Positions 6,910 to 41,621 of a DNA stretch of 41,621 bases are shown here, piece after piece. The notes under the pieces are model-generated. The model searched no databases, had not been told where the DNA came from, and saw only the letters and a list, made by a program, of their open reading frames with translations. The translations under genes were made by a program, and so were the position numbers. The DNA comes from Candidatus Eiseniibacteriota bacterium. Its GTDB lineage: Bacteria > Joyebacterota > Joyebacteria > Joyebacterales > Joyebacteraceae. Every line of letters starts with the position of its first letter. The stretch's first letter is position 1. The stretch spans positions 1-41,621 of the forward strand of contig JAUWBY010000001.1 of the NCBI GenBank assembly GCA_030609605.1. The letters run 5' to 3'.

Positions 6910-7800
6910 ATGTGGGAGCAGATAAGCAGCAATAAGGTGAAGTCAGGTTTCTTGGTCGGGTTCTTCGTCGTCTTCGTGGTGTTCCTCGGTTGGCTCTTCG
7001 GGAGGACAACCGTCTGGGGCCCTGCGGCGCCCATACTCGCGGCCGTCATCGCAGGCGGTGCGGCATGGGGCAGCTACTACAACAGCGACAGGATGGTTCT
7101 CGCCATCAGCCGGGCCAAGTCCGCTGAGAAGGAGGATCACCCTCATCTCTACCACTCGGTAGAGGGACTGGCCATCGCCGCCGGAATACCTACCCCGAAG
7201 CTCTACATCATAGACGACACGGCCCCCAATGCGTTCGCCACCGGGCGCAACCCCGAGCACGCCGCGATAGCCGTGACGACGGGGCTTCTGCAGAAGCTCA
7301 ACCGCGTCGAACTCGAGGGCGTTATCGGTCACGAGATGTCTCACATCGCGAACTACGATACGCTCCTCATGACACTCACTGTTGTCATGGTCGGCACCGT
7401 TGCACTCGTGAGTGATTGGATGCTGAGAAGCTTCTTGTGGGGTGGACGTAGGAAGAGAAGCTCGTCGGGAGGAGGTCAGATCGGAGTCATCCTTCTCGTT
7501 GTAGCGCTCGTGCTCGCGATTCTCTCACCACTCATCGCGCAGCTCATAAAGCTCGCCATATCGAGAAGACGCGAGTTCCTGGCCGACGCAAACGGCGCGC
7601 TACTGACGCGGTACCCGGAAGGACTGGCGAGCGCACTTGAGAAGATAGCGTCCGACCGGGAGCCATTGGAGGTCGCGAACAAGGCGACCGCCCACCTCTA
7701 CATCTCCAACCCTCTCAAGGGACAGAAGGGCGCCTTCAACAAGCTCTTCTCAACCCACCCTCCGATGGAACAGAGGGTCACGCTACTGAGAGAGATGTAG
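6910..7800 (+). CDS. htpX: M48 family zinc metalloprotease HtpX
   Basis: HEMSH zinc motif (GVIGHEMSHIANYD), TM segments on both sides, and REFLADANGA...THPPMEQR at the C-terminus. Confidence 0.85.
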   Translation: MWEQISSNKVKSGFLVGFFVVFVVFLGWLFGRTTVWGPAAPILAAVIAGGAAWGSYYNSDRMVLAISRAKSAEKEDHPHLYHSVEGLAIAAGIPTPKLYIIDDTAPNAFATGRNPEHAAIAVTTGLLQKLNRVELEGVIGHEMSHIANYDTLLMTLTVVMVGTVALVSDWMLRSFLWGGRRKRSSSGGGQIGVILLVVALVLAILSPLIAQLIKLAISRRREFLADANGALLTRYPEGLASALEKIASDREPLEVANKATAHLYISNPLKGQKGAFNKLFSTHPPMEQRVTLLREM

Positions 7801-14299: not shown

Positions 14300-14370
14300 C
14301 TATGCGCCCACAGCCCAATCGGGCGCACCTATGCGCCCACAGCCCAATTGGGCGCACCTATACGCCCACC
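14300..14370. repeat. About 2.4 tandem copies of a 29-bp unit, each containing an internal palindrome, in the pmbA/DUF2207 intergenic gap
   Basis: CTATGCGCCCACAGCCCAATCGGGCGCAC (14300-14328) and CTATGCGCCCACAGCCCAATTGGGCGCAC (14329-14357), then a partial copy. Unit 2 contains the perfect 12-bp palindrome GCCCAATTGGGC. Confidence 0.9.
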
Positions 14371-19912: not shown

Positions 19913-20482
19913 CTAGATTCCCATTCCGCTGGGAACGGGCCGTGGAGGAACCGTGCCGCCGGGCATACACATCATGCGCCCACGGCCACCCATTGCGCCA
20001 CCCGGGCCGCGGTTCATGCCACCGCGACCGCCCATACCGCCATGACCCATCTGCATCCCGAAGCCCTTATCAAACAGCAACTTCTGGTCATCCGTCAGGA
20101 TCTTTCGGACCGCAACGTGCTGACGGATCCTTAGCTTCATCATCTCGGCGCGCTCTTTGGAGATGTCATCAATCATGCGCTCGAGCTTCCCGAAGTCGGG
20201 TTCGTCGCCCGTTATCAATTCGCGCATCTCAAGATGCATGACCTTGATCCGGTTGGAAAGCTCAACACGTTGTTCGTCGAAGCCGCTCCGGATCTCCTGC
20301 ATCTTCTCCTGCTGCGCCTCTGTGAACGCCGGCATCGCGCCCGGCCCCATCGCCGGACCGCCGCGCATGCCGCCGCCCATGGCTCCGCTCTGGAAACCTC
20401 TACCCGCGGTCGCCGGCACGGCTGCCATTGCTGCCATCGCCAGAGCGAGCATTACTACTATGAGGCCTTTCTTCCTGCTCAT
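19913..20482 (-). CDS. Spy/CpxP/ZraP-family periplasmic protein (LTXXQ motif, periplasmic heavy-metal-sensor type) with Gly/Met/His-rich ends
   Basis: Signal peptide (MSRKKGLIVVMLALAMAAMAAVPATA). Two LTXXQ-type motifs (FTEAQQEKM, LTDDQKLLF) flank a helical core. The tails are rich in G, M and H. Confidence 0.7.
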   Translation of the reverse strand: MSRKKGLIVVMLALAMAAMAAVPATAGRGFQSGAMGGGMRGGPAMGPGAMPAFTEAQQEKMQEIRSGFDEQRVELSNRIKVMHLEMRELITGDEPDFGKLERMIDDISKERAEMMKLRIRQHVAVRKILTDDQKLLFDKGFGMQMGHGGMGGRGGMNRGPGGAMGGRGRMMCMPGGTVPPRPVPSGMGI

Positions 20483-20616
20483 CGTCTTCTCCCTTCGGAA
20501 GTGGGAGGTCTCGCCTCCCGGATTCTTCTACTGTTTGGCTGTCCTTCCGGCCGGCATCGTCAGCCGCATGATATCTCGGAATGCCGGCCGGAGGAACTCT
20601 CTCACACCCCTTCTAC

Positions 20617-20632
20617 AGCAACCGAGGTGCCA
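20617..20632 (-). promoter_or_regulatory. Sigma54 (-24/-12) promoter for the Spy/ZraP-like gene
   Basis: Minus strand reads TGGCAC-CTCGG-TTGCT, a perfect match to TGGCAC-N5-TTGCW. Located in the 329-bp gap after the sigma54-dependent response regulator gene and about 135 nt upstream of the ATG at 20482. Confidence 0.65.
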
Positions 20633-20811
20633 ATCGTGTCGGAACGATGTAGAGCTCTCGTCTGTGCGACATAACATCTGATGGAACAGAACGTTACGCG
20701 ACTAGCTTTTTCGGATGAGACGTGCCCTGAAGACCAGGGAAGGACCTTGGCGTGAAGGAATTACCCACTTCGGGAGGTAGAGCGGCTTGGAGGTGCGCAG
20801 AATCTGCGCGG

Positions 20812-22152
20812 TCAGGATTCTATCTCGTACTCTCTGATCTTGTTCTGGAGAGTTCTGCGCGAAATGGCCAGGATCTTCGCCGCGTGAGTTCTGTTGCCCT
20901 CAGTCTGCGCGAGGGTCTTGATGATGATGTCACGCTCCATTTCGCGGATCGTCATACCCGTCTTTTCTCCGTCCACCTCGGAGTCTGGAATCGCCTGAAG
21001 CTTCGCTGGAAGTTGCTCGGGGAATACTGTCTCGCCACGAGATAGAACCACGGCACGGTGTATGGCGTTCTCGAGCTCCCGGACGTTCCCGGGCCAGTCG
21101 TAGTTCATCATGATTCGCATCGTCTTGGGTGACATCCTCTTCGGCTTCGTGCCTTTCTCGGCGTGCTTCTTGAGAAAGTGCTCCACGAGGAGCGGTATGT
21201 CCTCCTTGCGGTCCCGGAGCGGCGGTATGACAATGGTCACGACATTGAGTCGGAAATAGAGGTCTTCACGGAAGCTGCCGTCGACGACGGCAGCATCGAG
21301 ATCCCGATTGGTCGCGGCCACTATGCGGACGTCGACAGTGATATCGACCGATCCGCCCACGCGTTGAAGGGTGTGATCCTGCAGAAAACGGAGCAATTTG
21401 GCCTGTAGCTCGGACGACATGTCGCCGATCTCGTCCAGGAAGATGGTCCCGCCCACCGCCAGCTCGAACCGCCCCCGCTTCTGCCGACCAGCGCCGGTAA
21501 AAGCGCCCTTCTCGTGGCCGAACAACTCGCTCTCGAGAAGACCTCCTGGAATGGCCGAACAGTTCACGGCCACAAACGGCTTGTGTTCGCGTGGGCTCGC
21601 CCGGTGTACCTCGTGCGCTATGAGCTCCTTGCCTGTCCCGCTCTCGCCGAGGATGAGAACCGCGGCATCGCTCGTGGCGACGCGGCGAGTCAGCTCCAAC
21701 ACCTCCCGCATTGCGACGCTCGTCCCGATGATCTCACTCGAGGGCTTGATCTCGGGCGGCTTCTCCTCAGTCACCCCGGACGACTCATCGGTGAATCTCG
21801 ACACAACCGAACGGACCTCGTCGATATCTATCGGCTTCGTGATGTAGTCAAATGCCCCGAGCTTCATGGCCTCGACCGCGGTCTCAACCGACGCATAGGC
21901 CGTCATCATGATGATGCCGCAGTCCGGACTCGCCTTCTTCATCCGTCCCAGAGCCTCAATGCCATTGATACCCGGCATCCGGATGTCCATTATGACCAGG
22001 TCGTGAAACCCGCCCGCCAACTTCTCGACGCCGCTCTCCCCGTCGGGAGCGACCTCTACCTCATGACCATCGCTCTCGAGCACGGCCTTGAGAAGCTCAC
22101 GCACACTCGACTGGTCATCAACCACAAGAATTCTGAGGCGATTCTCCACCAT
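20812..22152 (-). CDS. Sigma54-dependent response regulator (NtrC/ZraR/AtoC-type: REC + AAA+ + Fis HTH)
   Basis: REC domain (ILVVDDQ...[11 protein letters not shown]), Walker A GESGTGKE, the GAFTGA sigma54-contact motif, Walker [19 protein letters not shown] and a C-terminal HTH ([17 protein letters not shown]). Start set at ATG 22152 (AGGGGAG SD); the ORF is open to GTG 22197. Confidence 0.9.
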
Positions 22153-22223
22153 CCGGACATGCTCCCCTATGCGATCCGATGCCGGCTGCTCCGGCACTCC
22201 ACGCTGCCCTGACAGGGCAGCCG

Positions 22224-24071
22224 CTAGCGCGAACCTGTACCCGGTTCCCCGCGCGAAGCTCTGAACACCATAGAGAACGTAGTCCCCTTCCCCTTTTCGC
22301 TCACGACATGGATGTGCCCGGCGTTCTGCTCGACGAGTCGCGAGACTATCGTCAATCCAAGACCGGTCCCGGTCGGCTTCGTCGTGTAGAACGGTTCGAA
22401 CAGCTTCGTGAGGTCCTCCTCGCTCATTCCCTCGCCTGTATCTGCGATATCGATGGCGACCTGCTCCGGCTGTTCGCCTGCGGTCGCGGCGGTCGCGCTA
22501 TCCTCGGGAACAACGATTCTCGTCTTCACCGTAAGCGTCCCGCCGTCCCTCATCGCTTCCATGCCGTTCAGAAGCACGTTGAGGAGCGCCTGGCGCACCT
22601 GCCTCGAATCCACGAGGATGCGCGGTAGCCCGTCAGGCAGGTCGGTGACGATTCTGACGTTCTTGAAATCCGCGTCCTCCGACACGAGCGAGAGCGCGTC
22701 CTCGACGATCGCGTTCGTATCGCCCGGACGGATCTCGGCAACGACGGGCTTCGCGAAATCAAGCAGCTCCTGCACAACTCGATCGAGTCGCTCAACCTCC
22801 TCGATCATGATATCGGAGTATCGCTCTTCCTCGGAGCCCGGGCTGAACTTGCCGCGAAGGAACTGCGCGAATCCCTTGATCGAGCTGAGGGGATTCCGCA
22901 CTTCGTGGGCCACGCCGGCCGCCAGCCTGCCAAGGGAGGCCAGGTGACGCCCTCGCTCCAGCTCGGCCTTGAGCGCCTCGATCTCGCGCAGGTCCTGGTA
23001 GAGCAGAACCGTTCCCGCTCGCTCACCGTCCTCGTCACGGAGTAGCGATGCGCTGACCGAGACGGGGATCTTCTCCCCCGCTACCACGGCTGTCGCCTCC
23101 ACTTCAGCTATGTCCTTCTCACCCCGAAGCACCAGATCCACTCCCGCCCGCTCGGGACCCGGCTCGAGACCGGCCACGCCATCAAGGCCTCGGCCGGCGA
23201 CCTTCGCGTTGCCCAGTCCGAACAGGGCACGTGCCCGGGAGTTGATGGTCACAACACGACCGTCGGCGTCGACGGATACCAGCCCGTTCGCCATGCTCTC
23301 TATGACGTTGTCCGTATATGTGCGCATATTCGCAAGCGCCGTCTGCGTCGAGCGGTATGCGGACACCACGAAGAGGAAGTAGATGGCCGCTCCGCCAACG
23401 ATGGTCAGGATAATGCCGAGCAGGACAGTGCGATTGCGAGAGAGAAGGAACGTCTTCTCTATCTCCGTGGGGTCGAGCGCCACGACGCCGTAGAGACGTG
23501 TTGGATGCAACAGGTCGATCGGCCTCCCCAGAAGCTCGGACAGGCGTCTGGCGACAGCCTCTATGTTACAGGGCGGCCTCATCCTGTGGCCGAACCTCGG
23601 TGGCGGCCTCTCACAGAGCATCGCGGGATGTATGTCGAAGGCCGTCACGTACTGTTGAAGAGTATGCCCGCCAATAGTGACGCGCTTCCTGCGGATGGGT
23701 GACGCATCAGGCCCATCTTGCCCCGGCAACCACCCGATGTGAGGCGCTCCGACCATTGCAGTATCGCTGTGTGCGACGACGGTTCCGTCGAAATCGAGAA
23801 GGGCCAGGTACTCAGCCTGGCCGCGGTTGGCAGCCTCGGAGAGAAAGAACTCAAGACGTGACAGCTGCCATCGTGGCGAGACGAGTTCGGTTCTGAGATC
23901 GGTACTCAGGAACATGAGCATGGCCCCGGCCTTGCGCTCCAGTCCGTCCGCCACGTGCTGCCGCCCCCTATCGATGTCGCGCATCGAAGTGAACACGACC
24001 ACGGCCGCGACGACGAAAACCCCGATGATGATCGACGTGATGGGAATGTAAGTGTTTCGGAACGTTCTCAA
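22224..24071 (-). CDS. Sensor histidine kinase (two TM segments with periplasmic loop, PAS, HisKA, HATPase_c)
   Basis: H-box HEVRNPLSSIKGFAQFL, N-box LLNVLLNGMEAM, G-boxes DTGEGM and GTGLGL, and two TM helices flanking a region of about 190 aa. The annotated start is a TTG at 24071, so the start is uncertain. Confidence 0.85.
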   Translation of the reverse strand: MRTFRNTYIPITSIIIGVFVVAAVVVFTSMRDIDRGRQHVADGLERKAGAMLMFLSTDLRTELVSPRWQLSRLEFFLSEAANRGQAEYLALLDFDGTVVAHSDTAMVGAPHIGWLPGQDGPDASPIRRKRVTIGGHTLQQYVTAFDIHPAMLCERPPPRFGHRMRPPCNIEAVARRLSELLGRPIDLLHPTRLYGVVALDPTEIEKTFLLSRNRTVLLGIILTIVGGAAIYFLFVVSAYRSTQTALANMRTYTDNVIESMANGLVSVDADGRVVTINSRARALFGLGNAKVAGRGLDGVAGLEPGPERAGVDLVLRGEKDIAEVEATAVVAGEKIPVSVSASLLRDEDGERAGTVLLYQDLREIEALKAELERGRHLASLGRLAAGVAHEVRNPLSSIKGFAQFLRGKFSPGSEEERYSDIMIEEVERLDRVVQELLDFAKPVVAEIRPGDTNAIVEDALSLVSEDADFKNVRIVTDLPDGLPRILVDSRQVRQALLNVLLNGMEAMRDGGTLTVKTRIVVPEDSATAATAGEQPEQVAIDIADTGEGMSEEDLTKLFEPFYTTKPTGTGLGLTIVSRLVEQNAGHIHVVSEKGKGTTFSMVFRASRGEPGTGSR

Positions 24072-24251: not shown

Positions 24252-25064
24252 TCAGTACTCACGGAGCGTCCCGGTGACCCTGGCGTGATCGCAACCGCGC
24301 CTGAGGACCACGAGACCCACCACCACCGAGACGGCAGCCGAAATGAGGAGAAAAACGAGATGCGTGGCGGTGCCGGCGTCGTGAACCGGCCCGCGAAACC
24401 CAGCGCGGGCCACCGGAAGAACGTGCGACGTCGGAAGCATCCACGCCACTCTCCGCAACCAGACCGGGAGAAGAGATACGGGGAAGTAGACACCGCCCAA
24501 CAGCCCCGAGAGCGCTCCAAACGCCCACGACACAGGTTCTCCCTCTTTGAAGACCGTCGTGAGTCCGGCCGAGATGAATCCGATCCCACACATCGTCAGA
24601 GAATAGAGGACCACTGCCGTCAGCGCCGGGAGTGTGACCGGAATCGTCACACCCAGAAGACCTGAGACAATCACAGCCAGTCCGAGCGCCACCCCCTGAG
24701 CGATCATGATCTCCGACAGCCCCGCAAGGAGCACGAGCAAGGCAACGGGCCTGCCGCTCGATACGAGTTGCTCGAACGTGCCCTGTAGTTGTTCCCGCCT
24801 GACCGTCTTACGGAAGGCATGCAGCCCGGAAGCAGAAACACCGTGCACGACTACGCCGATGAGTGCGAAGGCCGTGTAGGTCATTCCCACTTCGTCCTCG
24901 AAACCGGACCCCGCCAGCTCTACGACCCTTCCCACAAACAGGAAGGTGATGGCAGACAGGAGAAGTGATGCAAATCCCAGAAACAGTTTTGACCGGTAGC
25001 TTGCATAGGTCGCGACGCTCCTGACGACAAACGCCCAGCCGAGATTGATGACATCCCGCGACAT
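24252..25064 (-). CDS. ABC-2 type transporter permease
   Basis: ATG at 25064 overlaps the ATPase stop by 1 nt (TGATG). About six TM helices in 270 aa, which is ABC-2-like topology. The longer ORF to 25259 is Arg-rich and non-protein-like. Confidence 0.65.
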   Translation of the reverse strand: MSRDVINLGWAFVVRSVATYASYRSKLFLGFASLLLSAITFLFVGRVVELAGSGFEDEVGMTYTAFALIGVVVHGVSASGLHAFRKTVRREQLQGTFEQLVSSGRPVALLVLLAGLSEIMIAQGVALGLAVIVSGLLGVTIPVTLPALTAVVLYSLTMCGIGFISAGLTTVFKEGEPVSWAFGALSGLLGGVYFPVSLLPVWLRRVAWMLPTSHVLPVARAGFRGPVHDAGTATHLVFLLISAAVSVVVGLVVLRRGCDHARVTGTLREY

Positions 25065-25780
25065 CACGAGTGCTCCACAGACGGCTGAGCGGCCACCGGC
25101 TGCTGCAACAGCTCGGGCGACGAGATGGAATCGGATCCGGGTGATGGCAACTCGACGACCTGGTCGCAGAAGCGCGATCCCTCCATTCTGTGAGTCGCCA
25201 TCACTAGAGCGCACCCGTCGCGCAGTCTTCGCTCGATCGCGGAACACACGAGAGCGCACCCGGTGACGTCCAGAGAGGCGAACGGTTCGTCAAGAAGAAG
25301 GAGCGATGGAGTGCCGAGGAAAGCTCTCGCCACGGCCAGCCGCGCGCCCGTTCCCCTGGACAGTCGCCCGGCGCGCATATTCAGCCATGGTTCCAGATCC
25401 AGTTCGTCCACAACGCAGTCCATGGCAGAGGACAGCTCTCTGCCCCAAAGCCCGGCCAGACGCCCGAAGAACGTGAGATTCATCCTTGCGGTCAGCCTTA
25501 CGTAGAACGAGCGTTCGGCGCCCAGAGAGACTCCGACACGGCGTCGAACATGCGTCGATGCGTGCCTCACGTCGAAGCCGCAGACGATGGCCGACCCGCA
25601 CGATGGCATCAGGAGACCGGCCGCGATACGGAGCGCCGTGCTCTTCCCGGCTCCGTTCGGACCGACGAGAGCGATCGCCTCCCCCGCTGCTACCGTGAAG
25701 CTGAGATCTCTCAGTGCGTCCAGCCGTTGCCCGCGACGCCGGAACTGCTTCCCGACATCGGAGAACTCCACGATCCTCAT
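25064..25780 (-). CDS. ABC transporter ATP-binding protein
   Basis: Walker A GPNGAGKST, signature-like LSRGTGARL, Walker B LLLLDEPF, H-loop ATHR. ATG at 25780 has a GGAGAGG SD. Confidence 0.85.
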   Translation of the reverse strand: MRIVEFSDVGKQFRRRGQRLDALRDLSFTVAAGEAIALVGPNGAGKSTALRIAAGLLMPSCGSAIVCGFDVRHASTHVRRRVGVSLGAERSFYVRLTARMNLTFFGRLAGLWGRELSSAMDCVVDELDLEPWLNMRAGRLSRGTGARLAVARAFLGTPSLLLLDEPFASLDVTGCALVCSAIERRLRDGCALVMATHRMEGSRFCDQVVELPSPGSDSISSPELLQQPVAAQPSVEHS

Positions 25781-25817: not shown

Positions 25818-27206
25818 TCATCGCTCCTCCTCATCCACCACCGTGCGGAACTCCCACGCCCCGACACTCCGTGTGCTCGCGCTCACGATGATGAGATCAT
25901 CTTGGCCGTCGCCGTTCACGTCGCATACGAGCACATCGGATGCCCCCACGCCATCGGGAAGAGCGACGATCGCTTCGCCTGTCCCACGCGCCAGCACTCC
26001 GACGCGTCGCTCGTGCCAAGCCACGATACACGGCACGACGCCTCCGTCCAATCCGGCGGCCGCCAGTTCGACGAGCACCGGCGCATCGTAGACATCACCC
26101 CCGATATCGAGTTCCCAGACACGCTTCTTCCACTTGGGCGTCGCCGCATACAACAGGCCGTCACTGCAGCCAAAGATGAGTTCACTGCCGGTTGAACCGT
26201 CCACGTCGACAGACAGCATCTCGCCTATCGGTTCCCCGGTCCTTGCGATCGCGTTTCTGATGAAGCGCGGCAGCCGTCTCTTTGCGAGCACTTCCTTGTG
26301 AGACTCGTTCCCGAACCGCATGCGAACCAGTTCATCACCCGTCTCCCCATCTAGGACAACAAGTGCGCCGGCGAAGCAACCGACGGCGACTTCGTTGTAT
26401 CCGTCACCCGTCAGATCCGCAACAACGGGCAGATTGCTGGCGACACCTTCAGGGTACATGCGACCCTTCTCTCCCAGCTTCGAGTCCCAGAGATCCTCGC
26501 CGGCCGATGAGACACAGGTGAGGACGTTTGCGTTCTCCACAACCAGGATCTCTGACGTTCCGTCCCCGTCGATGTCGGCGCAAATGAGTTTCGACAATCC
26601 ATCCCCAAACACGCTGCCGTCGTGCGGAGTCGTTCTTCTCCAACGCTCGACCAATCCGGGAAGTCCTATGGCCACAAGATCGTCGCCCTCATCGCCGCGG
26701 ACGGTCAGAACGATGACCTGCTCTCCGTATGTCGTTCGCACAATACCAACGTCACGAACCTTCCCCGATAGCTCACACCCAGCGAGAGCCTCGCCCGTCG
26801 CACCGCTCTGAACCAGGACCCTGTGCCCAGAACACCTCACGACCTCCTCCCCCGGGGACGCGAGGAGATCGGCCGTGAGCGTGCCGGCCGGATCCGTGTA
26901 TGCGACACGCCAGATCTCAGCTCCGGATTCAAGCTCGAGGGCGACCACTGTGGAGGATTCCCTCCCCTTTCCCATTGTCACGAGAACCTCGCGAATCCCG
27001 TCCCCGTCGAGATCCACAAGAAGCGCGTCGGCGATGTTTGCCCCTGAAATATCGAGGCTCGTCGCCCACAGCTCGCCTAGAGTCACTGCGCCGGCATCAA
27101 CCTGCGCCGCGGTGAGTGCCCCGGCGCACAGGATTGCCGCGATGGTGACAACACATGTCGATCGCCTCGCTACGCCCTCCGCAGAACACCCACCCACGGC
27201 TCTCAT
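25818..27206 (-). CDS. Secreted FG-GAP/VCBS-repeat beta-propeller protein
   Basis: Signal peptide, then five DxDxDG-type repeats: VDLDGDGIRE, ADIDGDGTSE, ADLTGDGYNE, VDVDGSTGSE, CDVNGDGQDD. The AGGAGGA SD overlaps the stop of the preceding peptide gene. Confidence 0.7.
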   Translation of the reverse strand: MRAVGGCSAEGVARRSTCVVTIAAILCAGALTAAQVDAGAVTLGELWATSLDISGANIADALLVDLDGDGIREVLVTMGKGRESSTVVALELESGAEIWRVAYTDPAGTLTADLLASPGEEVVRCSGHRVLVQSGATGEALAGCELSGKVRDVGIVRTTYGEQVIVLTVRGDEGDDLVAIGLPGLVERWRRTTPHDGSVFGDGLSKLICADIDGDGTSEILVVENANVLTCVSSAGEDLWDSKLGEKGRMYPEGVASNLPVVADLTGDGYNEVAVGCFAGALVVLDGETGDELVRMRFGNESHKEVLAKRRLPRFIRNAIARTGEPIGEMLSVDVDGSTGSELIFGCSDGLLYAATPKWKKRVWELDIGGDVYDAPVLVELAAAGLDGGVVPCIVAWHERRVGVLARGTGEAIVALPDGVGASDVLVCDVNGDGQDDLIIVSASTRSVGAWEFRTVVDEEER

Positions 27207-27215
27207 CTCTTCCTC

Positions 27216-27383
27216 CTAGTAGTCGACGAGACAGACGTCTCTGTTGCCGCAGCTGCCGAAATCGAACCCGCACTGATCGACAGAACCGCAGTCTCCCCAG
27301 TCAATGAAGATGTAGCACAGGAGCGAATCCGGTGCTGCACCCGACGAATCTGAACCGCTGTTCGCCAGCCTGAGATGATTCAT
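27216..27383 (-). CDS. Putative RiPP precursor peptide B (55 aa)
   Basis: ATG at 27383 with GGAAGGAG upstream. Translation MNHLRLANSGSDSSGAAPDSLL-CYIFIDWGDCGSVDQCGFDFGSCGNRDVCLVDY. Paralogous to peptide A, with five Cys each followed by Asp 3-5 residues later. Confidence 0.55.
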   Translation of the reverse strand: MNHLRLANSGSDSSGAAPDSLLCYIFIDWGDCGSVDQCGFDFGSCGNRDVCLVDY

Positions 27384-27420
27384 CCCTTGATCTCCTTCCC
27401 GCACGCGGCTGTCCATACAC

Positions 27421-27591
27421 CTACCCCGTGTCAATGAAGCAGTTATCATGCTGCTCACATCCGCACCCTGCATCCAGGATCCAGCAGAGATCCGACGAAG
27501 GACACTGCGAGTAATCGACGAAACATATCTCGCTCACGTCCGACTTCGCCGCGACTTCAGCCGCCCCTCTGATGCCGTTCGCCAGCTTCAT
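27421..27591 (-). CDS. Putative RiPP precursor peptide A (56 aa)
   Basis: ATG at 27591, 11 nt after the radical SAM gene stop, with GGTGAGG upstream. Translation MKLANGIRGAAEVAAKSDVSEI-CFVDYSQCPSSDLCWILDAGCGCEQHDNCFIDTG. Six Cys residues. Confidence 0.55.
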   Translation of the reverse strand: MKLANGIRGAAEVAAKSDVSEICFVDYSQCPSSDLCWILDAGCGCEQHDNCFIDTG

Positions 27592-27602
27592 GTGCTTCAA
27601 CC

Positions 27603-30116
27603 TCACCACCCCCTCTCCCGCACATTCCCTTTGCCACCTGCTTCTTCCCGCGGGCGATCCCGCACATTTGCCCCGCCACCTGCTTCCTCCCGCGGGCGAT
27701 CTCCCACACTTGCCGCGCCGCCTGCCTCGCTTCGCCCTCGTCCACGCAAGCGTCTCCTCTGCTCCTCAGGCAACCCCGCGTATAGCCACATTGAAAGCTC
27801 AATGATCCTCCTCCTGACGGAGCACCGCACCGCATCGTGCCCCGACGCTTCTCCCGGCATCGTATCAAGATCGTGATGGCAGGGTCCTCCGCACAGGTCG
27901 TGCGCCCAGCAGTCCAGACAAGCGGACGATGCCGCTCGCAGCTTCTTGAGCAACGACGTGATCGCCCGGCGGTCGATGCCGCTTGCCACGTGCCCGACGG
28001 CGAAGCGATCGTCACCTGCGAATCTGTGGCAGAGATAGAGCGTCCCGTCCGTCGCAACAGAGAGATAGCGCGCCCCGGCGCCACACGGAGAATCGCGGCG
28101 AGACCCGCGCGCCAGGAGCGCCATCGGCTCGGTGAAACTGCTCACCGATGGGCGCGAGCCGCTCAACAGTACATCACGTTCCGCTTGGGCAAGCGCTTCG
28201 AACTCAGAGCAGAGCCGCTCCGCGAACCCCCTGCTCATGCTCGATCCGCTCACAGGAGCCAGATGCACGGTGGAAAACCCGAGCCCCGCAAGATGCGCCA
28301 CAAGCTCGGTCAGAGGTTCTGACGACTCCGTCACCGTCGCCCTAACCCCCACGCTGAAACCGGGAGGCAGCTCCGTCAGGTTGCGGACGATACTCGCGTA
28401 GGACCCCTTGCCGTTGCGAAAGCGTCGGTTCGCATCGTGGTCCTCTTCGCAGCCGTCCATGCTGATCAGACAATCGATCCCGAGCTCGGCGAGAAGCCTG
28501 GCGGTGCCGGGAGTGAGCAGTGTTCCATTCGTTGTCATATGGAAACGGATATTCCGCCCCACCTCCGTGGCACGCTCTCGCGCGTAGCGAACGACTGGAC
28601 GAAGCATGTCCGTCGCGAGGAGCGGCTCTCCTCCAAAGAAGATTATCGATATCTCCGGCTCTCCGAACGACTCGCGTATCAGGAGGTCAATAGCCCTGAA
28701 AGCCACGTCCTCCGCCATGGTCTCACCAGCCGCGTTCTCTCTACGACGTCCGGCGCCCGTCTGTGAAGCTGCCAATGTTCCGAGGTAGCAGTAGGTACAC
28801 GAGAGATTGCAGGCGTTGCTCACGTTAAGCGCCAGCGATTTGATGGAGATCTCGATCTCTGAGGCCCGTCTCCCGCTCCGACGGGGCTTCCCCCCCGGCG
28901 CCAATCCCCCGACTTCGGAGATGGCGGTTTGGACGGAGGCAGCGCCGTGGTTGAGTTCGAGGACCGCTCGCTCGGTCACGGGCGCTCTTTTCGCGAGCCA
29001 CCTGATGGTATCTGCCGCGACGGCATCTGCTTCAAAAAGGAAGCCGGACGCGGGATCGAACGCGAATTCCTTTCCGTCCACGCTGAATGTGTGGAGCTCG
29101 CGCCCTGCGAGGATCGCGTGCGCGAGTGAGTCGTCCGGTTCTCGGCCGTTCGGGTTTTCTCCGCGCCCTGGACTGCTCGCGGCGGCCAGCGCCTCGAGTG
29201 AGAGGCGACGGGTCATTCTGGCGTTGCCCGAGGTGGCATCGTGAAGCACAGAGCTCAGGAACTCAGCAAGCTGCGGACAAGGCAGACTCTCAGCTGTACT
29301 GAGAGCCTGCGCATAACACGATTCCATTGTCCCGGTGACTCTCTCAAGAGCACCTGACTCGGCCGCCATCCTGAGAAGACCTCTCGCAGAGAGCTTCTCC
29401 GGAAGCTCCTTGCACCCACTCCACGTGAGGAGCATCCACACGGTCGCCGACGGGCGGCCAGCCGCCAGATCCTCACCAAGATCGACCAGATCATCAGCCA
29501 ACTGGTAACCGGCGTGGTACTCCTCGATGAGTCGCTCCATAGCAGGAAGAAGATCCGGGCGCCCGCCAAGAGTGGCTACCGCGGCGGCGGTAACCTTCAG
29601 CGGTGACATCTTCCTTCCCAGAAGGAGAAGCGTACTGTCGAGTTCATCGTCCCCAACGGCTCTGACGCCTCCCTCCTTGTGATGAACCGACTGTTCCCAC
29701 TCGAGGCTCAAGAAGTACTCGTCCATGAACCGGTCGTAGTGCTGCCAGAATTCGCTCTCCCCCGGGAAGAGCTCAGCGTACAGGCGGACGAACTCGCACA
29801 GACACCTGTCGCAAAAGTCGAGCGCTCTCGGGTCGACGCCCCTTGTGCCGTCCAAGAGCTCGTCCTGCGAGAGGAAATGCGCCGTGGCGAATGCGTTCCC
29901 CAGAGACATGACTCTCGCCGCATCGCCGTCGCCTTCAAAACGGATGCCTTCTACCAGAAGGAATGGGAGAGTAACGGCGATGTTCGTCGATCTGATGCCC
30001 CTGTCCGACATCGCGCTCTCCAATCGAAAGCGACTGACGGACGACTCAAAGCCGGTCGCGACGCGGCGCAATTCCTCTCGCATGTCGAATCGGCTTTGCG
30101 TGCTGGATGACGACAC
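27603..30116 (-). CDS. Fusion protein: N-terminal polyprenyl-synthase-like (class I isoprenoid fold) domain + RRE-like segment + radical SAM + SPASM domain + repeat tail
   Basis: - aa 78-89: AHFLSQDELLD, FARM-like.
- aa 203-217: GYQLADDLVDLGEDL, SARM-like DDxxD, about 123 aa after the first motif.
- aa 341-375: HTFSVDGKEFAFDPASGFLFEADAVAADTIRWL, a PqqD/RRE-like N-extension common in peptide-modifying rSAM enzymes.
- aa 435-442: CNLSCTYC (CX3CX2C, nt ~28791-28814).
- GGEPLL follows.
- SPASM: CGAG...LYLCH plus CLDCWAHDLCGGPC (CX2CX5CX3C).
- Start uncertain: GTG 30116, ATG 30083 or ATG 30011. Confidence 0.85.
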   Translation of the reverse strand: MSSSSTQSRFDMREELRRVATGFESSVSRFRLESAMSDRGIRSTNIAVTLPFLLVEGIRFEGDGDAARVMSLGNAFATAHFLSQDELLDGTRGVDPRALDFCDRCLCEFVRLYAELFPGESEFWQHYDRFMDEYFLSLEWEQSVHHKEGGVRAVGDDELDSTLLLLGRKMSPLKVTAAAVATLGGRPDLLPAMERLIEEYHAGYQLADDLVDLGEDLAAGRPSATVWMLLTWSGCKELPEKLSARGLLRMAAESGALERVTGTMESCYAQALSTAESLPCPQLAEFLSSVLHDATSGNARMTRRLSLEALAAASSPGRGENPNGREPDDSLAHAILAGRELHTFSVDGKEFAFDPASGFLFEADAVAADTIRWLAKRAPVTERAVLELNHGAASVQTAISEVGGLAPGGKPRRSGRRASEIEISIKSLALNVSNACNLSCTYCYLGTLAASQTGAGRRRENAAGETMAEDVAFRAIDLLIRESFGEPEISIIFFGGEPLLATDMLRPVVRYARERATEVGRNIRFHMTTNGTLLTPGTARLLAELGIDCLISMDGCEEDHDANRRFRNGKGSYASIVRNLTELPPGFSVGVRATVTESSEPLTELVAHLAGLGFSTVHLAPVSGSSMSRGFAERLCSEFEALAQAERDVLLSGSRPSVSSFTEPMALLARGSRRDSPCGAGARYLSVATDGTLYLCHRFAGDDRFAVGHVASGIDRRAITSLLKKLRAASSACLDCWAHDLCGGPCHHDLDTMPGEASGHDAVRCSVRRRIIELSMWLYAGLPEEQRRRLRGRGRSEAGGAASVGDRPREEAGGGANVRDRPREEAGGKGNVRERGW
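27613..27740. repeat. About three tandem 42-bp units at the 3' end of the radical SAM fusion gene (14-aa GANVRDRPREEAGG repeats)
   Basis: Read directly: ...GCCACCTGCTTCTTCCCGCGGGCGATCCCGCACATTTGCCCC / GCCACCTGCTTCCTCCCGCGGGCGATCTCCCACACTTGCCGC..., with a more degenerate third copy. Confidence 0.8.
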
Positions 30117-30312: not shown

Positions 30313-30451
30313 ACAGAGTGCGGCGTGGCCTCATGACCACGCCGCGCTCTGTCACAACTGTCTACTTGGATTACACACTGCACTGCTCTATGGCTCCCGA
30401 GCATAGAGCAGCCGGCAGGCGGACTGTGGAAGAGCGTTCGCGCCTGCCGGC
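30313..30451 (-). other. Three consecutive strong hairpins/inverted repeats in the non-coding leader region
   Basis: - 30313-30352: 16-bp stem with one mismatch (ACAGAGTGCGGCGTGG / CCACGCCGCGCTCTGT).
- 30383-30411: perfect 10-bp arms CTGCTCTATG / CATAGAGCAG.
- 30411-30451: perfect 10-bp GC-rich arms GCCGGCAGGC / GCCTGCCGGC with a 21-nt loop. Confidence 0.6.
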
Positions 30452-30873
30452 CTCGTGGGCTGGATCCCATCCTTGGGAGGAGAGTGCTTCTGACCAAGGT
30501 CGCCGTTCGGATGGAATCCGGGTGGAGAGCAGTTGGTGTTGCCGCGTCGGTGTCACTCCTTGCTGTTGCCGGTTCTTCTTCTCTATTCCCTACAGCTACC
30601 GCCAGGTGCCAGGAGATTCGGTAGCTGTCTAGATTCAGCCGAGGAACGGCGAGGCTATTCCGATGAGCAGGATTACTATTATCACTTTGACTCTCGCCGC
30701 GCTCGGCATGGCTACTCTCTCTGTTCTATGTCATCTCCCCGATGAATCCGGAGAGCCTGTGGTTCCTGGAAGGGAGGAGGGCCATAGAGCGACCGGACTC
30801 GCCCCCCTGATAATTTCACTCACGGCCACACCCCCTTCCAAGTCCTGTTGTCAAAGTTCTAACCCCTCTAAGG

Positions 30874-30888
30874 GCAGGGATCGTGCCA
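30874..30888 (-). promoter_or_regulatory. Sigma54-type -24/-12 promoter motif, distal, facing the RiPP-like operon
   Basis: Minus strand reads TGGCAC-GATCC-CTGC. The -24 TGGCAC is perfect, GG-N10-GC spacing is correct, and the -12 is CTGC versus TTGC. Confidence 0.45.
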
Positions 30889-31200
30889 GTTCGTGCTGAT
30901 TGACTCCCCATTCGTGCACCTGTGCAGTACCGCTAACCCGCTTACTGGCCGTAAGTTACGCTGCTGACGATTTAGGCGGCCAACACTCAGCAAAAGGAAC
31001 GGTGGCAGGTTCTTGACACCGCACGACCGATGCAGATGGGATTCCTGGTAACTTCTCCCTACAGCAGTGGTTACGCGACCGTCACGTTTGTGACGCTCTG
31101 TCGAAGATCTGACGGTCTCGGAAGCCTTCCGGTGACGCGCGGATGCCTGTCGAAGACCTGTCGGTGCTGATGCGGCCGGCCGGACAGCTCGGAGCGACAA

Positions 31201-31297: not shown

Positions 31298-34200
31298 CTA
31301 TCCGATTCCGTGCTTCTTCATCTTCGCGTGCAGGCCTGTGCGCGACATCCCCAGGATCTGAGCTGCCTGCTGCTTGTTCCACCCCGTGCGATCCAGCGCT
31401 TCGAGAATCCGGCTTCGTTCCAACGTAACGACCTCATCCTTGAGCGACCGGGGGCGACTCTCATCGAGTTCGCTACCGGCTCCACCTTCAGCGCGAACCT
31501 TCAGTTCGGGGCTCATCTTGTCGATGCCGATGGTCTCGCCGCTCTTGGTGAGCGCGACACCGCGACGGACCTCATTCTCCAACTCCCGCACGTTGTTCCC
31601 CCGCCATCCATACCTGAGGAAGAGCTCCTTCACTTCCCGGCTGAACCCCACGATCGCTTTTCCCTCACGCTTCGCGTAGTACTCAAGGAAGTGATCCATC
31701 AGAGCCGGGATATCTTCAGGGCGGTCCCTCAGTGGTGGAAGCTCAACTGTAATAGTGCAGAGTCTGTAGAAGAGGTCTCGCCTGAATCCGCCGTTCTCCA
31801 CCTCCTGCCGAAGGTCCTTGTTCGTGGCGGAGATGACACGGGCGTTGCTCGTCCTCGTAACGCTTTCTCCTACCCTCCGGAACTCGCCATTCTGGAGGAA
31901 TCTCAGAAGCTTCACTTGAAGCTCGGGACTCATCTCCCCAATCTCATCGAGGAAGAGCGTTCCATCCGCCGCAGCCTCGACAAGGCCCTGGCGATCCCGG
32001 TCGGCATCCGTGAAAGCGCCGCGGACGTGGCCGAAGAGCTCGCTCTCCTGGAGATTCGGAGCGATGGCCCCGGAGTTCAGAGCCACGAACCTCCCGGTCG
32101 CCGTCCTGCTGCCGGAGTGAATGGCCTTCGCGATCAGTTCCTTGCCCACACCTGATTCGCCACGTATTAGAACCGGCACGTGGCTGTCCTTCAGCTGCTC
32201 GACGGTCGCGAGTATCTGGATCATCTCGGGACTTCGGGTGATAAGCCCGACGGTCTCCGCTGAGTCAAGGAGTCTGTCGGCCTCCTCCCCTGTCGACCGC
32301 GCGACGATTGACCCACCGACTCGAGAATGCATGAGGCCGAGCATCCGACCGACAGCGCCGACGAACTCCACGTCGCTCTGTGTGAAAGCAACTGATCTGT
32401 CGGTCCGGGAGCGGTCTACGTACACAAGGTAGACTGGTTTGCTGTCGAGGCCGACTTCCGCCGGTATCAGCGCAAGCGCGCCGACTTCGGATGGAGTGAA
32501 AGCGCCGTCTGAGTGTCCATTGCTGACGACTAGAGGACGCGAGTGGCCCCGTTTCGAAACGGTCGTGCGCACAAAGCGGCATGCGTCCGAGACTCCTCGT
32601 CCCGTTCTGTCGACAGACGTCACCACCGACGGCGTCCCTCCGTCCACAACCTGAAGGAGGACCAGCCGGTCGACGGACAGCGCACCTGCCAACTCCCCGG
32701 CGAAGCTATGCAGATCGTCGGGGCTCGGTTCGGCCGTCTCGAGAAATCTATAGCCCTCTGCAATCAGTGCGTACCGACCCCGGCGCGCGATTCCTGCGTC
32801 AGCCAGAGCCACATCCAGTTCCATGAGTGCGGCATCGATCTCGGCGAGACCGTGGCAGTCGTGCGCCACCTCAAACCTGAGTCTTGCACTCTCCAACCAC
32901 CTGCGCGCGCGATCCGGCAATCCGCTCGCCTTGAGCGCCTTGCCGCGTTCGAACTCACATCGCGCCACCCAGTTCGGGAGGCCGATGCGCGCAAAGGCTG
33001 CGGCCGCGGACGAAAGCCGGGCCTCTATGAGATCGATCGGCGGTTCGTCACCAGTCGACGATTCCCTGAGACCAATGCCTTCCGCGAGCGCTGCCCTTGC
33101 CAGCTCGAACGATTCCCCAATGCGACGCAGTATCTCCTCGGCCCTATGGATGAGAACCTCGGCAGTCGTCCGTTCACCCTTGGCGTAGCAGACGCTGGCC
33201 AGCACGCGGAGTGTTGCACCCTCTTCGAGGCTGTCGTTGATCTCGCGCGTGAGCTTGATGCCGTCCGAGCAGTCACGCTCGGCCTCGTCGAACCGACCGA
33301 GTTCCATGTAGACCTCGGCGCGCCGTCTCAGAACCTCACCGACGACATCGCTGTTCGACGAAAGCCTGTACGCGCACCCGAGAGCTCGATTGAGGCTCCT
33401 CAGCGCCTGCTCGTGCTCGCCGCGGTCCATCTCCAAATGGCCGATGAACTCCAAAGCCAGAGCTTCAGCCCTCAGGTACCCCTTCTCCTGGCTTGCAGAA
33501 AGGGCGTTCTGGAAAAGTCTCTGTGCCTCGCCCCACTCACGCCGTATACGGAGGATGTTACCCAGTGCGGACTCCGCTGCCACGAGGCCACGAGTCGCAC
33601 CGATCCGCCCGTAGAGGCTGCGCGCTTCGTTCAGCTTCTCCTCCGCTTCGCTCCAGCGGGAGAGCTTGTAGAGGATGATACCGAGGTTGGTAAGACGGTC
33701 GGCGATCGCCATCGTGTGACCGAGCTTCCGGTCGATGGTGAGAGCGTTCTCGATGTACTCAAGCGCTCCGTGGAAGTCGCCCGACCGCTTGGCCAACACA
33801 CCGAGGTTGTTGTAGGCGGAGGCGAGTCCGGCTTCATCGCCAAGACGCTTCTGTGTTACCAGGTAGTCAGTGAAATAGTCGCGCGCCGCCTTGATGTTGC
33901 CCAGCTCAGCGTTTGCGATGCCGAGTACCTTGCCTGCCTCCGCCAGAAGCGGACTCTCGGCCCTCGTTTTCAGAATCTCGTAGGCCTTCTGGGCCGCCCG
34001 CAGCGCCTCATCGTAACGACCGCTCTCGATCTCGACGCGGGCGAGCACGACGTTCGCTTCAGCCCACGCTGATCCATCATCCTCGCTGAGATCGAGATCG
34101 TCCAGCTTCGCGCAGTAGCGCCTGGCGTCATCGTAGCCGCCGAGCCCCAGGTAGCACTTCGCGATGTTGACCAGGAGACCCGCAGACTCAGGGTCGGTGA

Positions 34201-34396
34201 GCTTCTCACGAAGCTCACCGGCCTCGGTCCGTTCGAAATAGCTCAGCGCGTCAGTGTAGCTGTCGGATTCGAGATAGACATCGCCCAGGCGCATGGCCGC
34301 GACTGCGGCGTCTCTGCCGCTCCGCGATTCGAGCGCTTTCTCGAACGCTTTCAACATCTCGCGTTCCGGCGCACTGTCATTTCTCTTGTTGCTCAT
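31298..34396 (-). CDS. Sigma54-dependent transcriptional activator with a large N-terminal TPR array and central sensory region (TPR + GAF-like + AAA+ + Fis HTH), 1032 aa
   Basis: The N-terminal ~480 aa carry repeated TPR-like A..Y......G....A...... helix pairs. AAA+ domain: Walker A GESGVGKE, GAFTDA (a GAFTGA variant), Walker B LFLDEIGEM, RVISATNKDL, LPPLRDRPEDI. C-terminal HTH: WNKQQAAQILGMSRTGL. Confidence 0.9.
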   Translation of the reverse strand: MSNKRNDSAPEREMLKAFEKALESRSGRDAAVAAMRLGDVYLESDSYTDALSYFERTEAGELREKLTDPESAGLLVNIAKCYLGLGGYDDARRYCAKLDDLDLSEDDGSAWAEANVVLARVEIESGRYDEALRAAQKAYEILKTRAESPLLAEAGKVLGIANAELGNIKAARDYFTDYLVTQKRLGDEAGLASAYNNLGVLAKRSGDFHGALEYIENALTIDRKLGHTMAIADRLTNLGIILYKLSRWSEAEEKLNEARSLYGRIGATRGLVAAESALGNILRIRREWGEAQRLFQNALSASQEKGYLRAEALALEFIGHLEMDRGEHEQALRSLNRALGCAYRLSSNSDVVGEVLRRRAEVYMELGRFDEAERDCSDGIKLTREINDSLEEGATLRVLASVCYAKGERTTAEVLIHRAEEILRRIGESFELARAALAEGIGLRESSTGDEPPIDLIEARLSSAAAAFARIGLPNWVARCEFERGKALKASGLPDRARRWLESARLRFEVAHDCHGLAEIDAALMELDVALADAGIARRGRYALIAEGYRFLETAEPSPDDLHSFAGELAGALSVDRLVLLQVVDGGTPSVVTSVDRTGRGVSDACRFVRTTVSKRGHSRPLVVSNGHSDGAFTPSEVGALALIPAEVGLDSKPVYLVYVDRSRTDRSVAFTQSDVEFVGAVGRMLGLMHSRVGGSIVARSTGEEADRLLDSAETVGLITRSPEMIQILATVEQLKDSHVPVLIRGESGVGKELIAKAIHSGSRTATGRFVALNSGAIAPNLQESELFGHVRGAFTDADRDRQGLVEAAADGTLFLDEIGEMSPELQVKLLRFLQNGEFRRVGESVTRTSNARVISATNKDLRQEVENGGFRRDLFYRLCTITVELPPLRDRPEDIPALMDHFLEYYAKREGKAIVGFSREVKELFLRYGWRGNNVRELENEVRRGVALTKSGETIGIDKMSPELKVRAEGGAGSELDESRPRSLKDEVVTLERSRILEALDRTGWNKQQAAQILGMSRTGLHAKMKKHGIG

Positions 34397-41448: not shown

Positions 41449-41543
41449 CGTCGGCGGGTGCCGACCTCGTCGGTGGGTGCCGACCCCGTCGGCGGGTGCC
41501 GACCCCGTCGGCGGGTGCCGACCTCGTCGGTGGGTGCCGACCC
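41449..41543. repeat. Five tandem 19-bp units, each an internal palindrome, followed by a degenerate G/C-rich continuation
   Basis: CGTCGG(C/T)GGGTGCCGACC(T/C) at 41449-41467, 41468-41486, 41487-41505, 41506-41524 and 41525-41543. Each unit contains GTCGGC/T-GGGT-GCCGAC (6-bp stem, 4-nt loop). The array starts 22 nt after the sppA stop. Confidence 0.9.
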
Positions 41544-41621
41544 CGGCGGCGGGTGGCGCCCGCGGCGGCGGGGGGCGGCCCCGGCGGCCCCCCAGCCAAG
41601 AAAAGGAAAAACTCCACCCCC

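Follow-up and report, generated by a model that had tools for sequence, protein, structure and literature searches.

The window analysed here is a stretch of 41,621 nucleotides from Candidatus Eiseniibacteriota bacterium (assembly GCA_030609605.1, contig JAUWBY010000001.1, positions 1 to 41,621). On its minus strand, a gene for an 837-residue radical S-adenosylmethionine (SAM)/SPASM fusion enzyme is directly followed by two short open reading frames (ORFs), which encode the paralogous Cys- and Asp-rich peptides A and B. We consider it likely that A and B are the precursors of a previously undescribed ranthipeptide-type family of peptides that the ribosome makes and that are modified after translation (RiPPs) from the uncultured phylum Eisenbacteria. 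The features on which this assignment is built are the following, where RRE stands for RiPP recognition element.

27421..27606, minus strand: candidate precursor peptide A, 61 aa if the start is GTG 27606 (alternative starts, ATG 27591 and GTG 27609)
~27526-27606, minus strand: putative leader of peptide A, with the motif KHMKLANG
27424-27525, minus strand: putative core of peptide A, five C-X2-3-D units and one non-conserved Cys
27216..27383, minus strand: candidate precursor peptide B, 55 aa
27318-27383, minus strand: putative leader of peptide B, MNHLRLANS...
27219-27317, minus strand: putative core of peptide B, CYIFIDWGDCGSVDQCGFDFGSCGNRDVCLVDY, five C-X2-4-D units
27603..30116, minus strand: fusion maturase, 837 aa, composed of an N-terminal domain with a trans-prenyltransferase fold, then an RRE-like region, the radical SAM core and the SPASM domain, and finally a C-terminal tail with repeats
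27747..29096, minus strand: RRE-like, radical SAM and SPASM part of the maturase, aa 341-790, supported by the match to CteB, NCBIfam models and Cys motifs
~28788-28811, minus strand: CX3CX2C motif of the maturase, CNLSCTYC, read from the translation

Both minus-strand ORFs proposed in the first-pass annotation, which had been made from the letters of the window alone, are present, and its transcriptions of the two cores are exact: CFVD-YSQ-CPSSD-L-CWILD-AGCG-CEQHD-N-CFID-TG in A and CYIFID-WGD-CGSVD-Q-CGFD-FGS-CGNRD-V-CLVD-Y in B. Written as leader and core, peptide A, with its 3' end at 27421, reads ...KHMKLANGIRGAAEVAAKSDVSEI-CFVDYSQCPSSDLCWILDAGCGCEQHDNCFIDTG, and the full sequence of peptide B is MNHLRLANSGSDSSGAAPDSLL-CYIFIDWGDCGSVDQCGFDFGSCGNRDVCLVDY. 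AGGAG-type ribosome-binding sites can be read from the sequence in front of both ORFs, that of peptide B lying 8 nt 5' of its ATG. The feature had originally been delimited as 27216-27591, and only its upper boundary appears to require revision: GTG 27606, rather than ATG 27591, is most likely the start of peptide A, because it shares a GTGA overlap with the stop of the upstream gene and, in alignment, coincides with the ATG from which homologues start as MGLKHMKLANG; this makes the feature 15 nt longer. Similarly, the leader element recognized at first, (K/R)LAN(G/S), is present in both peptides as part of a longer shared motif, (K/R)H(L/M)(R/K)LAN(G/S), within a hydrophilic N-terminus that lacks a Sec signal. 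The observation at the heart of that annotation, namely five Cys-X2-4-Asp units in each of two paralogues, stands up well, being conserved across homologues (see below) and rarely produced by chance, with composition-preserving shuffling yielding five such units in 9 of 200,000 cases for the A core and 14 of 200,000 for the B core (<1e-4).

Homologues of the peptides exist. A word-indexed search of 5.8 billion clusters with a joint profile of A and B identified 37 homologous small proteins, and an exhaustive hidden Markov model search of 1.84 billion cluster representatives gave 43 matches, approximately 25 of which are short family members; the remaining, long matches were discarded as eukaryotic CCCH zinc-finger repeats without the Asp pattern. 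In a pattern scan of one genome from each of 185,579 GTDB species, the B type was detected in 24 species, all of them represented by metagenome-assembled genomes (MAGs) and every named one belonging to Candidatus Eisenbacteria, with B core identities of 53%-96%. The ORFs are syntenic in all related loci, in favour of the first-pass annotation. A gene of the A type lies directly 3' of the enzyme gene in every complete related locus and in every locus found via the B type, and a third paralogue, type C, is added in six distinct loci.

The Cys-Asp pattern is conserved in these peptides. In an alignment of 34 sequences spanning types A, B and C, the invariant columns consist of one leader Asn and exactly five Cys and five Asp; within types, the same alignment reveals an invariant Trp, as CW in the A core and as DW in the B core. 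Among 109 distinct cores gathered from all loci and search matches, at least five Cys-Asp units are kept without exception (109/109): 83 cores contain five Cys, each with its own Asp, four contain six of six, and 22 carry one additional Cys without a partner Asp. In 17 of these 22, the additional residue corresponds to the Cys of peptide A that had been set in brackets when the core was first described; this Cys is not conserved, being replaced by Ser, Asn or Asp elsewhere. Two further cores have other additional, non-conserved Cys, and the last three belong to a distant six-unit clade, in which Asn replaces the Asp of the first or second unit. The initial statement that every aligned Cys has a downstream Asp holds, as a one-Cys-one-Asp rule, for at least five units in each of the 109 cores. 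Neither the alignment nor the larger set contains a case in which Glu or some other residue takes the place of Asp in the five core units. The spacing within the repeated C-Xn-D units is a fixed mix of X2, X3 and X4, in contrast to the CX3D of the freyrasin definition. Across loci, the codons of the invariant Cys and Asp alternate between TGT and TGC and between GAT and GAC, respectively; this synonymous turnover implies that conservation operates at the protein level and that the ORFs are selected as protein. On this comparative evidence, peptides A and B are demonstrably translated and conserved.

The C-terminal part of the adjacent enzyme resembles known maturases of such peptides. A full-length alignment with CteB (5WGG, residues 7-450; E 1.7e-46) is obtained for its residues 341-780, and it includes the N-terminal region of CteB, which is the RRE of that enzyme. 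The CX3CX2C motif is followed by the Cys pattern CX12GX4C ... CX2CX5CX3C ... C, read from the translation and including CLDCWAHDLCGGPC and a later Cys, in agreement with the definition of SPASM radical SAM enzymes as proteins that combine CX3CX2C with a seven-Cys SPASM motif (CX9-15GX4C, CX2CX5CX3C, C). Among 18,950 NCBIfam models, the best for the maturase are PapB (256 bits), QhpD (255), nif11 (220) and SCIFF (196), all below their cut-offs. The PapB model (NF047865) is the top match in each of three orthologues (256, 245 and 255 bits, against an equivalog cut-off of 340), and QhpD (TIGR03906) is the second-best in all three, with the cut-off for this model, 453 bits, well above the score of the window enzyme. 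Judging from these matches, the maturase is a member of the PapB/QhpD/CteB clade that belongs to no curated family. At the 3' end of its gene, directly before the start of peptide A (27616-27725), there is a 42-bp tandem repeat of 2.2 copies, which encodes the repeated GDRPREEAGG-x-NVR tail of the protein, a tail of variable length among orthologues.

PapB joins the sulfur of Cys to the C-beta of Asp in CX3D motifs, accepts Glu and, in vitro, tolerates CX0-6D (PMC9413430), whereas QhpD makes three Cys-to-Asp/Glu links in QhpC (PMC7876137). Given that PapB accepts CX0-6D in vitro, the variable spacing remarked upon in the first-pass annotation presents no obstacle to a PapB-type reading. A leader Asn has been proposed as the contact of PapB with its RRE (PMC9413430), and we count the one leader Asn invariant in the main set in favour of the ranthipeptide assignment. 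The association of the peptides with an RRE-containing maturase is found in two gene architectures, with the enzyme being either a fusion or a stand-alone protein. Peptide-based searching led to the fusion maturase in 24 GTDB species and several metagenomes; because a search of this kind is biased toward peptide loci, metagenomes were also scanned with the N-terminal domain of the maturase, which yielded 22 loci, and every complete ORF was the same fusion enzyme, followed by these peptides. Taken together, a leader and a Cys-containing core encoded beside a radical SAM/SPASM maturase with an RRE correspond to the genetic half of the definition of a ranthipeptide (radical non-alpha thioether RiPP), the chemical half of which calls for a thioether from Cys sulfur to the beta- or gamma-carbon of an acceptor residue. 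The conserved Cys-Asp units, along with a maturase for which PapB and QhpD are the top matches, support the ranthipeptide-type reading advanced at the outset, as do the outcomes of all computational checks suggested there.

Two divergent groups help to delineate the system. A distant clade, with the leader motif HIKLLN or similar, H(I/V)(K/R/E)(L/I)LN, has six C-Xn-D units, the first or second of which sometimes ends in Asn; it is represented in locus L036 (7771-8177 and 8320-9738) and also in L034, L035 and L039. Its precursors are encoded in pairs beside a stand-alone SCIFF-like maturase, which is 32% identical to the C-terminal part of the window enzyme and is best matched by the SCIFF maturase model (318 bits), in a locus that also encodes two ABC/ABC-2 transporters and a CPBP (Rce1-like) protease. 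The additional Cys of this clade is accompanied by its own acceptor, so that the Cys and acceptor counts change together, from five in Eisenbacteria to six in this clade; both residues being otherwise invariant, this is the kind of co-variation that had been sought. The gene set of the six-unit locus includes neither the IPPS-like N-terminal domain nor the propeller described below, which leaves the peptide-maturase pair as the constant core of the system. The second group, identified by the maturase-domain scan, is a sub-clade with a single A-like precursor (L057, ~5960-6140; L061, ~6340-6520; L045, ~7230-7420) and the fusion maturase; its leader has HLTLxSG, with another residue in place of the Asn, and its Trp is found at a shifted position (..DWCLVDKD). 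The propeller and ABC genes are present in L061, the sole member inspected downstream. We therefore rejected the notion that A and B form an obligatory pair as a universal rule.

The N-terminal part of the window maturase resembles a trans-isoprenyl diphosphate synthase (IPPS), with counterparts of the first and second Asp-rich motifs (FARM and SARM, respectively) of these enzymes.

29172..30116, minus strand: predicted IPPS-like domain, aa 1-315, supported by an AlphaFold2 (AF2) model, Foldseek and profile searches
29850-29864, minus strand: FARM-like motif D85-E-L-L-D89
29481-29495, minus strand: SARM motif D208-D-L-V-D212 (YQLADDLVD)

When the AF2 model of this domain (pLDDT 70.7, pTM 0.73, from a 3-sequence alignment) was compared with the PDB using Foldseek, the top 50 matches were all trans-prenyltransferases (TM 0.42-0.72, the best 0.64-0.72; E down to 8e-5), with 12%-16% identity to IPPS structures, that is, a likeness at the level of fold and motif only. 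A 21-sequence profile of the domain matched geranylgeranyl diphosphate and polyprenyl synthases among PDB sequences at the Asp-rich motifs (E ~1e-3), and the Pfam family polyprenyl_synt was recovered below threshold in 9 of the 21 members; single sequences of the domain had no significant match in Pfam, and a single-sequence search returned at least two Eisenbacteria fragments. HFLxQ-D-x-x-x-D and YQLxDDxxD are kept in 27/27 distinct enzymes/loci, in which the FARM varies as D-(D/E/R/G/H)-x-x-D with the first and last Asp invariant; the invariant residues of the domain are D85, D89, K174, Q205, D208, D209 and D212. As far as can be judged from the model, the two hallmarks that characterise the trans-IPPS superfamily, an all-alpha fold and two Asp-rich motifs, are both present. 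Across 22 metagenomic loci and 27 genomic ones, no form of the domain other than this fusion with a radical SAM/SPASM enzyme was seen.

The conservation of the FARM, the SARM, K174 and Q205 points to a working diphosphate site. In StheQ, a ComQ-type peptide Trp-prenyltransferase with an IPPS fold and a D85-E86-D89 FARM, the same residue classes bind FSPP, an analogue of farnesyl diphosphate, and Mg2+ (bioRxiv 10.64898/2026.08.29.745113). The window domain shares with ComQ/StheQ the trans-IPPS fold, the D-E-x-x-D FARM, the Lys (K174) and a Gln located one helical turn before the second motif, and peptides A and B, like the ComX/StheX substrates of these enzymes, contain a conserved Trp, which is suggestive, albeit not diagnostic, of prenylation. 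It differs from them in possessing a true DDxxD SARM instead of an NDxxx pseudo-SARM and in being fused to a radical SAM enzyme, and the likeness is, again, confined to fold and motifs. With both Asp-rich motifs intact, the addition or use of a prenyl diphosphate by the fused domain is a probable second step of tailoring, candidate roles being prenylation of the peptides, synthesis of a polyprenyl diphosphate and docking only.

Downstream of the peptide genes, the operon continues with three genes of predicted envelope function.

25818..27206, minus strand: predicted secreted 8-bladed beta-propeller with FG-GAP/PQQ-like repeats and an N-terminal signal-like helix (Pfam, AF2, Foldseek)
25064..25780, minus strand: ABC transporter ATPase (DrrA-like), start placed by synteny, the ORF itself reaching 25867
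24252..25064, minus strand: ABC-2 type permease, start placed by synteny, the ORF itself reaching 25259

The complete order on the minus strand, a TPR/sigma-54 activator, a 1.2-kb 'gap', the 837-aa enzyme, A, B, the propeller, the ABC ATPase, the ABC-2 permease, a histidine kinase, a sigma-54 response regulator and a ZraP/Spy-like protein, is the same in every long related contig. The AF2 model of the propeller (pLDDT 86.6) has eight blades and is most similar, according to Foldseek, to BamB and the propellers of pyrroloquinoline quinone (PQQ) dehydrogenases. A sequence search gave 54 orthologues with E<=1e-53, followed by a gap to E ~1e-9, which indicates that the propeller is a dedicated orthologous family of this system. 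It is present in loci L001, L002, L004, L007 and L061 and, together with the ABC-2 exporter beside it, is a constant partner in Eisenbacteria; its candidate roles include those of a receptor, a chaperone, an immunity protein or a partner in a complex. A relationship to QhpB was considered and rejected, since QhpB was not among the sequence or fold matches (top 50 structural), which were BamB and PQQ-dehydrogenase propellers instead. An anti-phage defence system was likewise dismissed, the PADLOC matches being to generic domains only.

Further downstream (19913-24071, minus strand) lie the genes for a histidine kinase with a PAS domain, a response regulator of the sigma-54 type and a periplasmic protein resembling ZraP/Spy/CpxP, with a perfect sigma-54 promoter, TGGCACCTCGGTTGCT, preceding elements of this module at 20617-20632. 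These genes appear to form a ZraSR/ZraP-like envelope or metal-stress module. In L001, L002 and L004, the module and the peptide operon are in synteny. A functional link of the module to the Cys/Asp-rich peptides, for instance in metal handling, is conceivable.

The following scheme of maturation can be proposed for the peptides as ranthipeptide precursors. The leader motif, (K/R)HLRLAN(G), would dock on the RRE-like region of the maturase, whereupon the SPASM enzyme would take hydrogen from the beta-carbon of each Asp and couple this carbon to the sulfur of the Cys located 3-5 residues upstream, so that each peptide would acquire five small thioether rings in line. A second tailoring step may fall to the IPPS-like domain, and the ABC-2 pump would then carry the finished peptides to the envelope, possibly to be bound or handled there by the secreted 8-bladed propeller that is conserved along with them. 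Expression would be driven from a sigma-54 promoter by way of the adjacent TPR-AAA+ activator. In-line pairing would use every invariant residue, from the first core Cys to the last Asp near the C-terminus, and fits, by analogy, the N-to-C direction of PapA and QhpC; nested rings and Asp(i)-Cys(i+1) pairing are the alternative topologies. A more elaborate version of this scheme, which we put forward tentatively and regard as doubtful, is that of a bifunctional RiPP maturase of a hitherto undescribed kind, with the SPASM half stapling the five Cys-Asp rings and the IPPS-fold half prenylating the same peptide, for instance at the invariant Trp, as ComQ does; the product would be a lipidated, multiply stapled peptide pair that is exported and works with the dedicated periplasmic propeller under the control of a sigma-54 leader RNA and micro-ORF.

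Several observations weigh against the ranthipeptide assignment and the proposed scheme. The maturase scores below every curated cut-off (PapB, 256/340; QhpD, 255/453), and its chemistry could, accordingly, differ; which crosslink is made, to which atom of the acceptor and with which ring topology (in-line, nested or Asp(i)-Cys(i+1)) is, in each case, inferred. The leader Asn cannot be taken as universal, being replaced in the single-peptide sub-clade, and there is no leader protease in the operon. The model of the IPPS-like domain is of moderate confidence only (pLDDT 70.7, 3-sequence alignment), a prenyl acceptor cannot be named, and Trp had to be rejected as a marker of prenylation because it is not diagnostic and also occurs in the six-unit clade, which has no IPPS domain. 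Finally, the propeller matches only generic propellers of the BamB/PQQ type.

The parallels with quinohemoprotein amine dehydrogenase (QHNDH) suggest a different, rather unlikely, destination for the peptides, whereby the exported, crosslinked products would be tightly bound small subunits, possibly with a Trp-derived cofactor, of a propeller-based periplasmic complex, like the QHNDH gamma-subunit, QhpC, on QhpB. In both systems, a SPASM enzyme is paired with a leader-bearing peptide, an ABC exporter and a periplasmic propeller partner (PMC7876137); the order of events in QHNDH, from leader through radical SAM thioethers and ABC export to the periplasm to assembly on the propeller (PMC7876137), parallels the gene set of the window, QhpD is the second-best curated match of the maturase, and the A and B cores each possess an invariant Trp. 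The propeller family is dedicated, being found only with this system; yet, it is 8-bladed and BamB/PQQ-like, QhpB is absent from its top 50 structural matches, and the six-unit clade has no propeller at all. Nor does the operon contain a QhpA-like dihaem subunit, a QhpG-like flavin monooxygenase or a QhpE-like (subtilisin) protease, and, as a whole, the locus falls outside the qhp systems, with 255 instead of the 453 bits set for TIGR03906 and without the qhpABCEFG context. Peptides A and B are also shorter than QhpC, with five predicted rings that are small, as in freyrasin, versus three larger ones exemplified by Cys41-Asp49 (CX7D) (PMC7876137). Comparison of the peptide profile with PDB sequences gave only CCCH zinc-finger noise (E ~0.7), and neither QhpC nor any other solved chain was retained as a relative.

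It is quite improbable that the maturase performs a different chemistry on the same peptides, such as sactionine formation between Cys sulfur and C-alpha, links to residues other than Asp, or C-C/C-O bonds, with the Asp kept for, e.g., Ca2+/Zn2+ binding or recognition. According to reviews, SPASM enzymes of this clade form C-alpha, C-beta and C-gamma thioethers, and the window enzyme is under the cut-off of every curated equivalog family; its best matches, however, are the two enzymes that form Cys-Asp links. A role of the Asp in metal binding would be in line with the adjoining ZraSR/ZraP-like metal/envelope-stress module, but is difficult to reconcile with the strict one-Cys-one-Asp stoichiometry and the fixed short N-to-C spacing across 109 cores. 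Moreover, the added Cys of the six-unit clade brings its own Asp (Asn in three cores), and no core has Glu or another residue where its five core units require Asp, Asn being confined to the first or second unit of these three six-unit-clade cores. The notion that the peptides are not radical SAM substrates at all, but unmodified metal-binding or disulfide peptides that merely share the operon, is highly implausible: short Cys/Asp-rich peptides can chelate metals and the ZraP/Spy-like module is syntenic, but the hydrophilic N-terminus carries a conserved leader motif and no Sec signal, the peptides invariably adjoin an RRE-containing maturase in two architectures, and the only other matches of their profile are eukaryotic CCCH zinc-finger repeats without the Asp pattern.

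The interpretation of A and B as ranthipeptide precursors is retained as the likely one. Among the closest known systems is freyrasin (PapA), in which PapB forms six Cys-to-Asp beta-thioethers in CX3D motifs. The two systems have in common a repeated Cys-Xn-Asp core behind a Cys-free, Asn-containing leader and an RRE/radical SAM/SPASM maturase, PapB being the best curated match of the window enzyme, and small rings are expected in both. In the A/B family, by contrast, the five (or six) units combine X2, X3 and X4 spacing in a fixed manner and have bulky hydrophobic or aromatic flanks, a locus usually encodes two or three paralogous precursors, and the host is an Eisenbacteria MAG; the maturase differs from PapB in carrying the extra 315-aa IPPS-fold domain, in scoring 256 bits where 340 are required, and in its propeller and ABC-2 exporter partners. 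SCIFF/thermocellin (CteA) and CteB provide another point of reference, because the window maturase aligns over the full length of CteB and the six-unit clade maturase scores best with the SCIFF maturase model. The SCIFF leader is also similar, beginning MKHIK..LN; by contrast, the six Cys of a SCIFF core are not known to be paired with Asp, and the thermocellin link joins Cys to the C-gamma of Thr.

The first-pass annotation had placed the peptides outside the known precursor families, and scans of A, B and ten relatives against Pfam and NCBIfam (freyrasin-like, SCIFF, CefA and others) bear this out, with nothing above threshold. The freyrasin precursor model NF037957 (cut-off 30 bits) did not match A or B at E<=1, and the best of the relatives reached 12 bits (E 0.15); the SCIFF precursor model TIGR03973 matched neither A, B nor the relatives. 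Literature searches on the motifs, on Eisenbacteria and radical SAM, and on fusions of radical SAM enzymes with polyprenyl synthases returned nothing relevant, which, given that few subscription papers were covered, is weak evidence of absence. The expected chemistry, that of a ranthipeptide with Cys-Asp links, is of a known kind; what is new is the way in which the precursors are built, their occurrence as paired paralogues, the fusion of the maturase to an IPPS-fold domain and the partnership with the propeller and the ABC-2 exporter. The system thus offers a testable new RiPP family from a phylum without cultured members, with 109 natural core variants defining which residues matter, and, if the assignment is correct, it would add to the Cys-to-Asp thioethers of freyrasin and QhpC a fixed set of five rings of mixed size. 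The fusion of a ranthipeptide maturase with a prenyltransferase-fold domain that has intact diphosphate-binding motifs has no counterpart in the searchable literature and, should the N-terminal domain be active, would allow a single protein to produce peptides that are both stapled and lipidated; this is of relevance to peptide engineering because PapB is already in use for macrocyclisation. Further conserved parts that call for an explanation are the propeller, an invariant partner, and the leader RNA under the sigma-54 promoter, together with its micro-ORF.

The 1.2-kb spacer 5' of the enzyme gene is not empty. It contains a conserved block (~30623-30889, minus strand) with 70%-77% DNA identity even between loci whose proteins are only 35%-45% identical, and the following elements can be distinguished in and around it.

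31298..34396, minus strand: TPR and sigma-54 enhancer-binding protein (AAA+, HTH_8), identified with Pfam and syntenic in L001, L002, L004 and L007
30873..30888, minus strand: sigma-54 promoter TGGCACGATCCCTGCC, GG-N10-GC, with the GG and GC invariant in all aligned loci
30710..30865, minus strand: conserved leader RNA of ~155 nt, in which a long covarying stem encloses an invariant 25-nt block and a second hairpin, likewise with covariation, comes after it
30635..30709, minus strand: conserved 24-aa micro-ORF, MPSAARVKVIIVILLIGIASPFLG (one hydrophobic helix), with a GAGG site upstream
~30588-30630, minus strand: hairpin after the micro-ORF stop, supported by covariation

The promoter at 30873-30888 is probably activated by the TPR-AAA+ protein. 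In the leader RNA, the invariant 25-nt block is CAGGGGGGCGAGTCCGGTCGCTCTTTGG, and compensatory changes occur in 9 of the 20 predicted pairs. The micro-ORF is present in 29/29 loci checked, with a length of 24-26 aa and indels only in multiples of three, and its 3' half is nearly invariant even in nucleotides. Searches of Rfam and NCBIfam with the upstream elements produced no family match, Rfam giving only a chance match to a microRNA hairpin. Approximately 200 nt 5' of the maturase start codon, a strong GC-rich hairpin of 11 pairs with a weak T-rich tail (30320-30345, minus strand) may separate the operon from the micro-ORF unit as an attenuator or terminator.

Apart from the repeat in the maturase gene, the window contains several tandem repeats, namely a 15-bp unit in six copies inside an ORF at 877-967, a 29-bp unit in 2.4 copies at 14300-14369 and, at the window end (41449-41588), a partly palindromic 19-bp unit, CGTCGGCGGGTGCCGACCC, in 7.4 copies.

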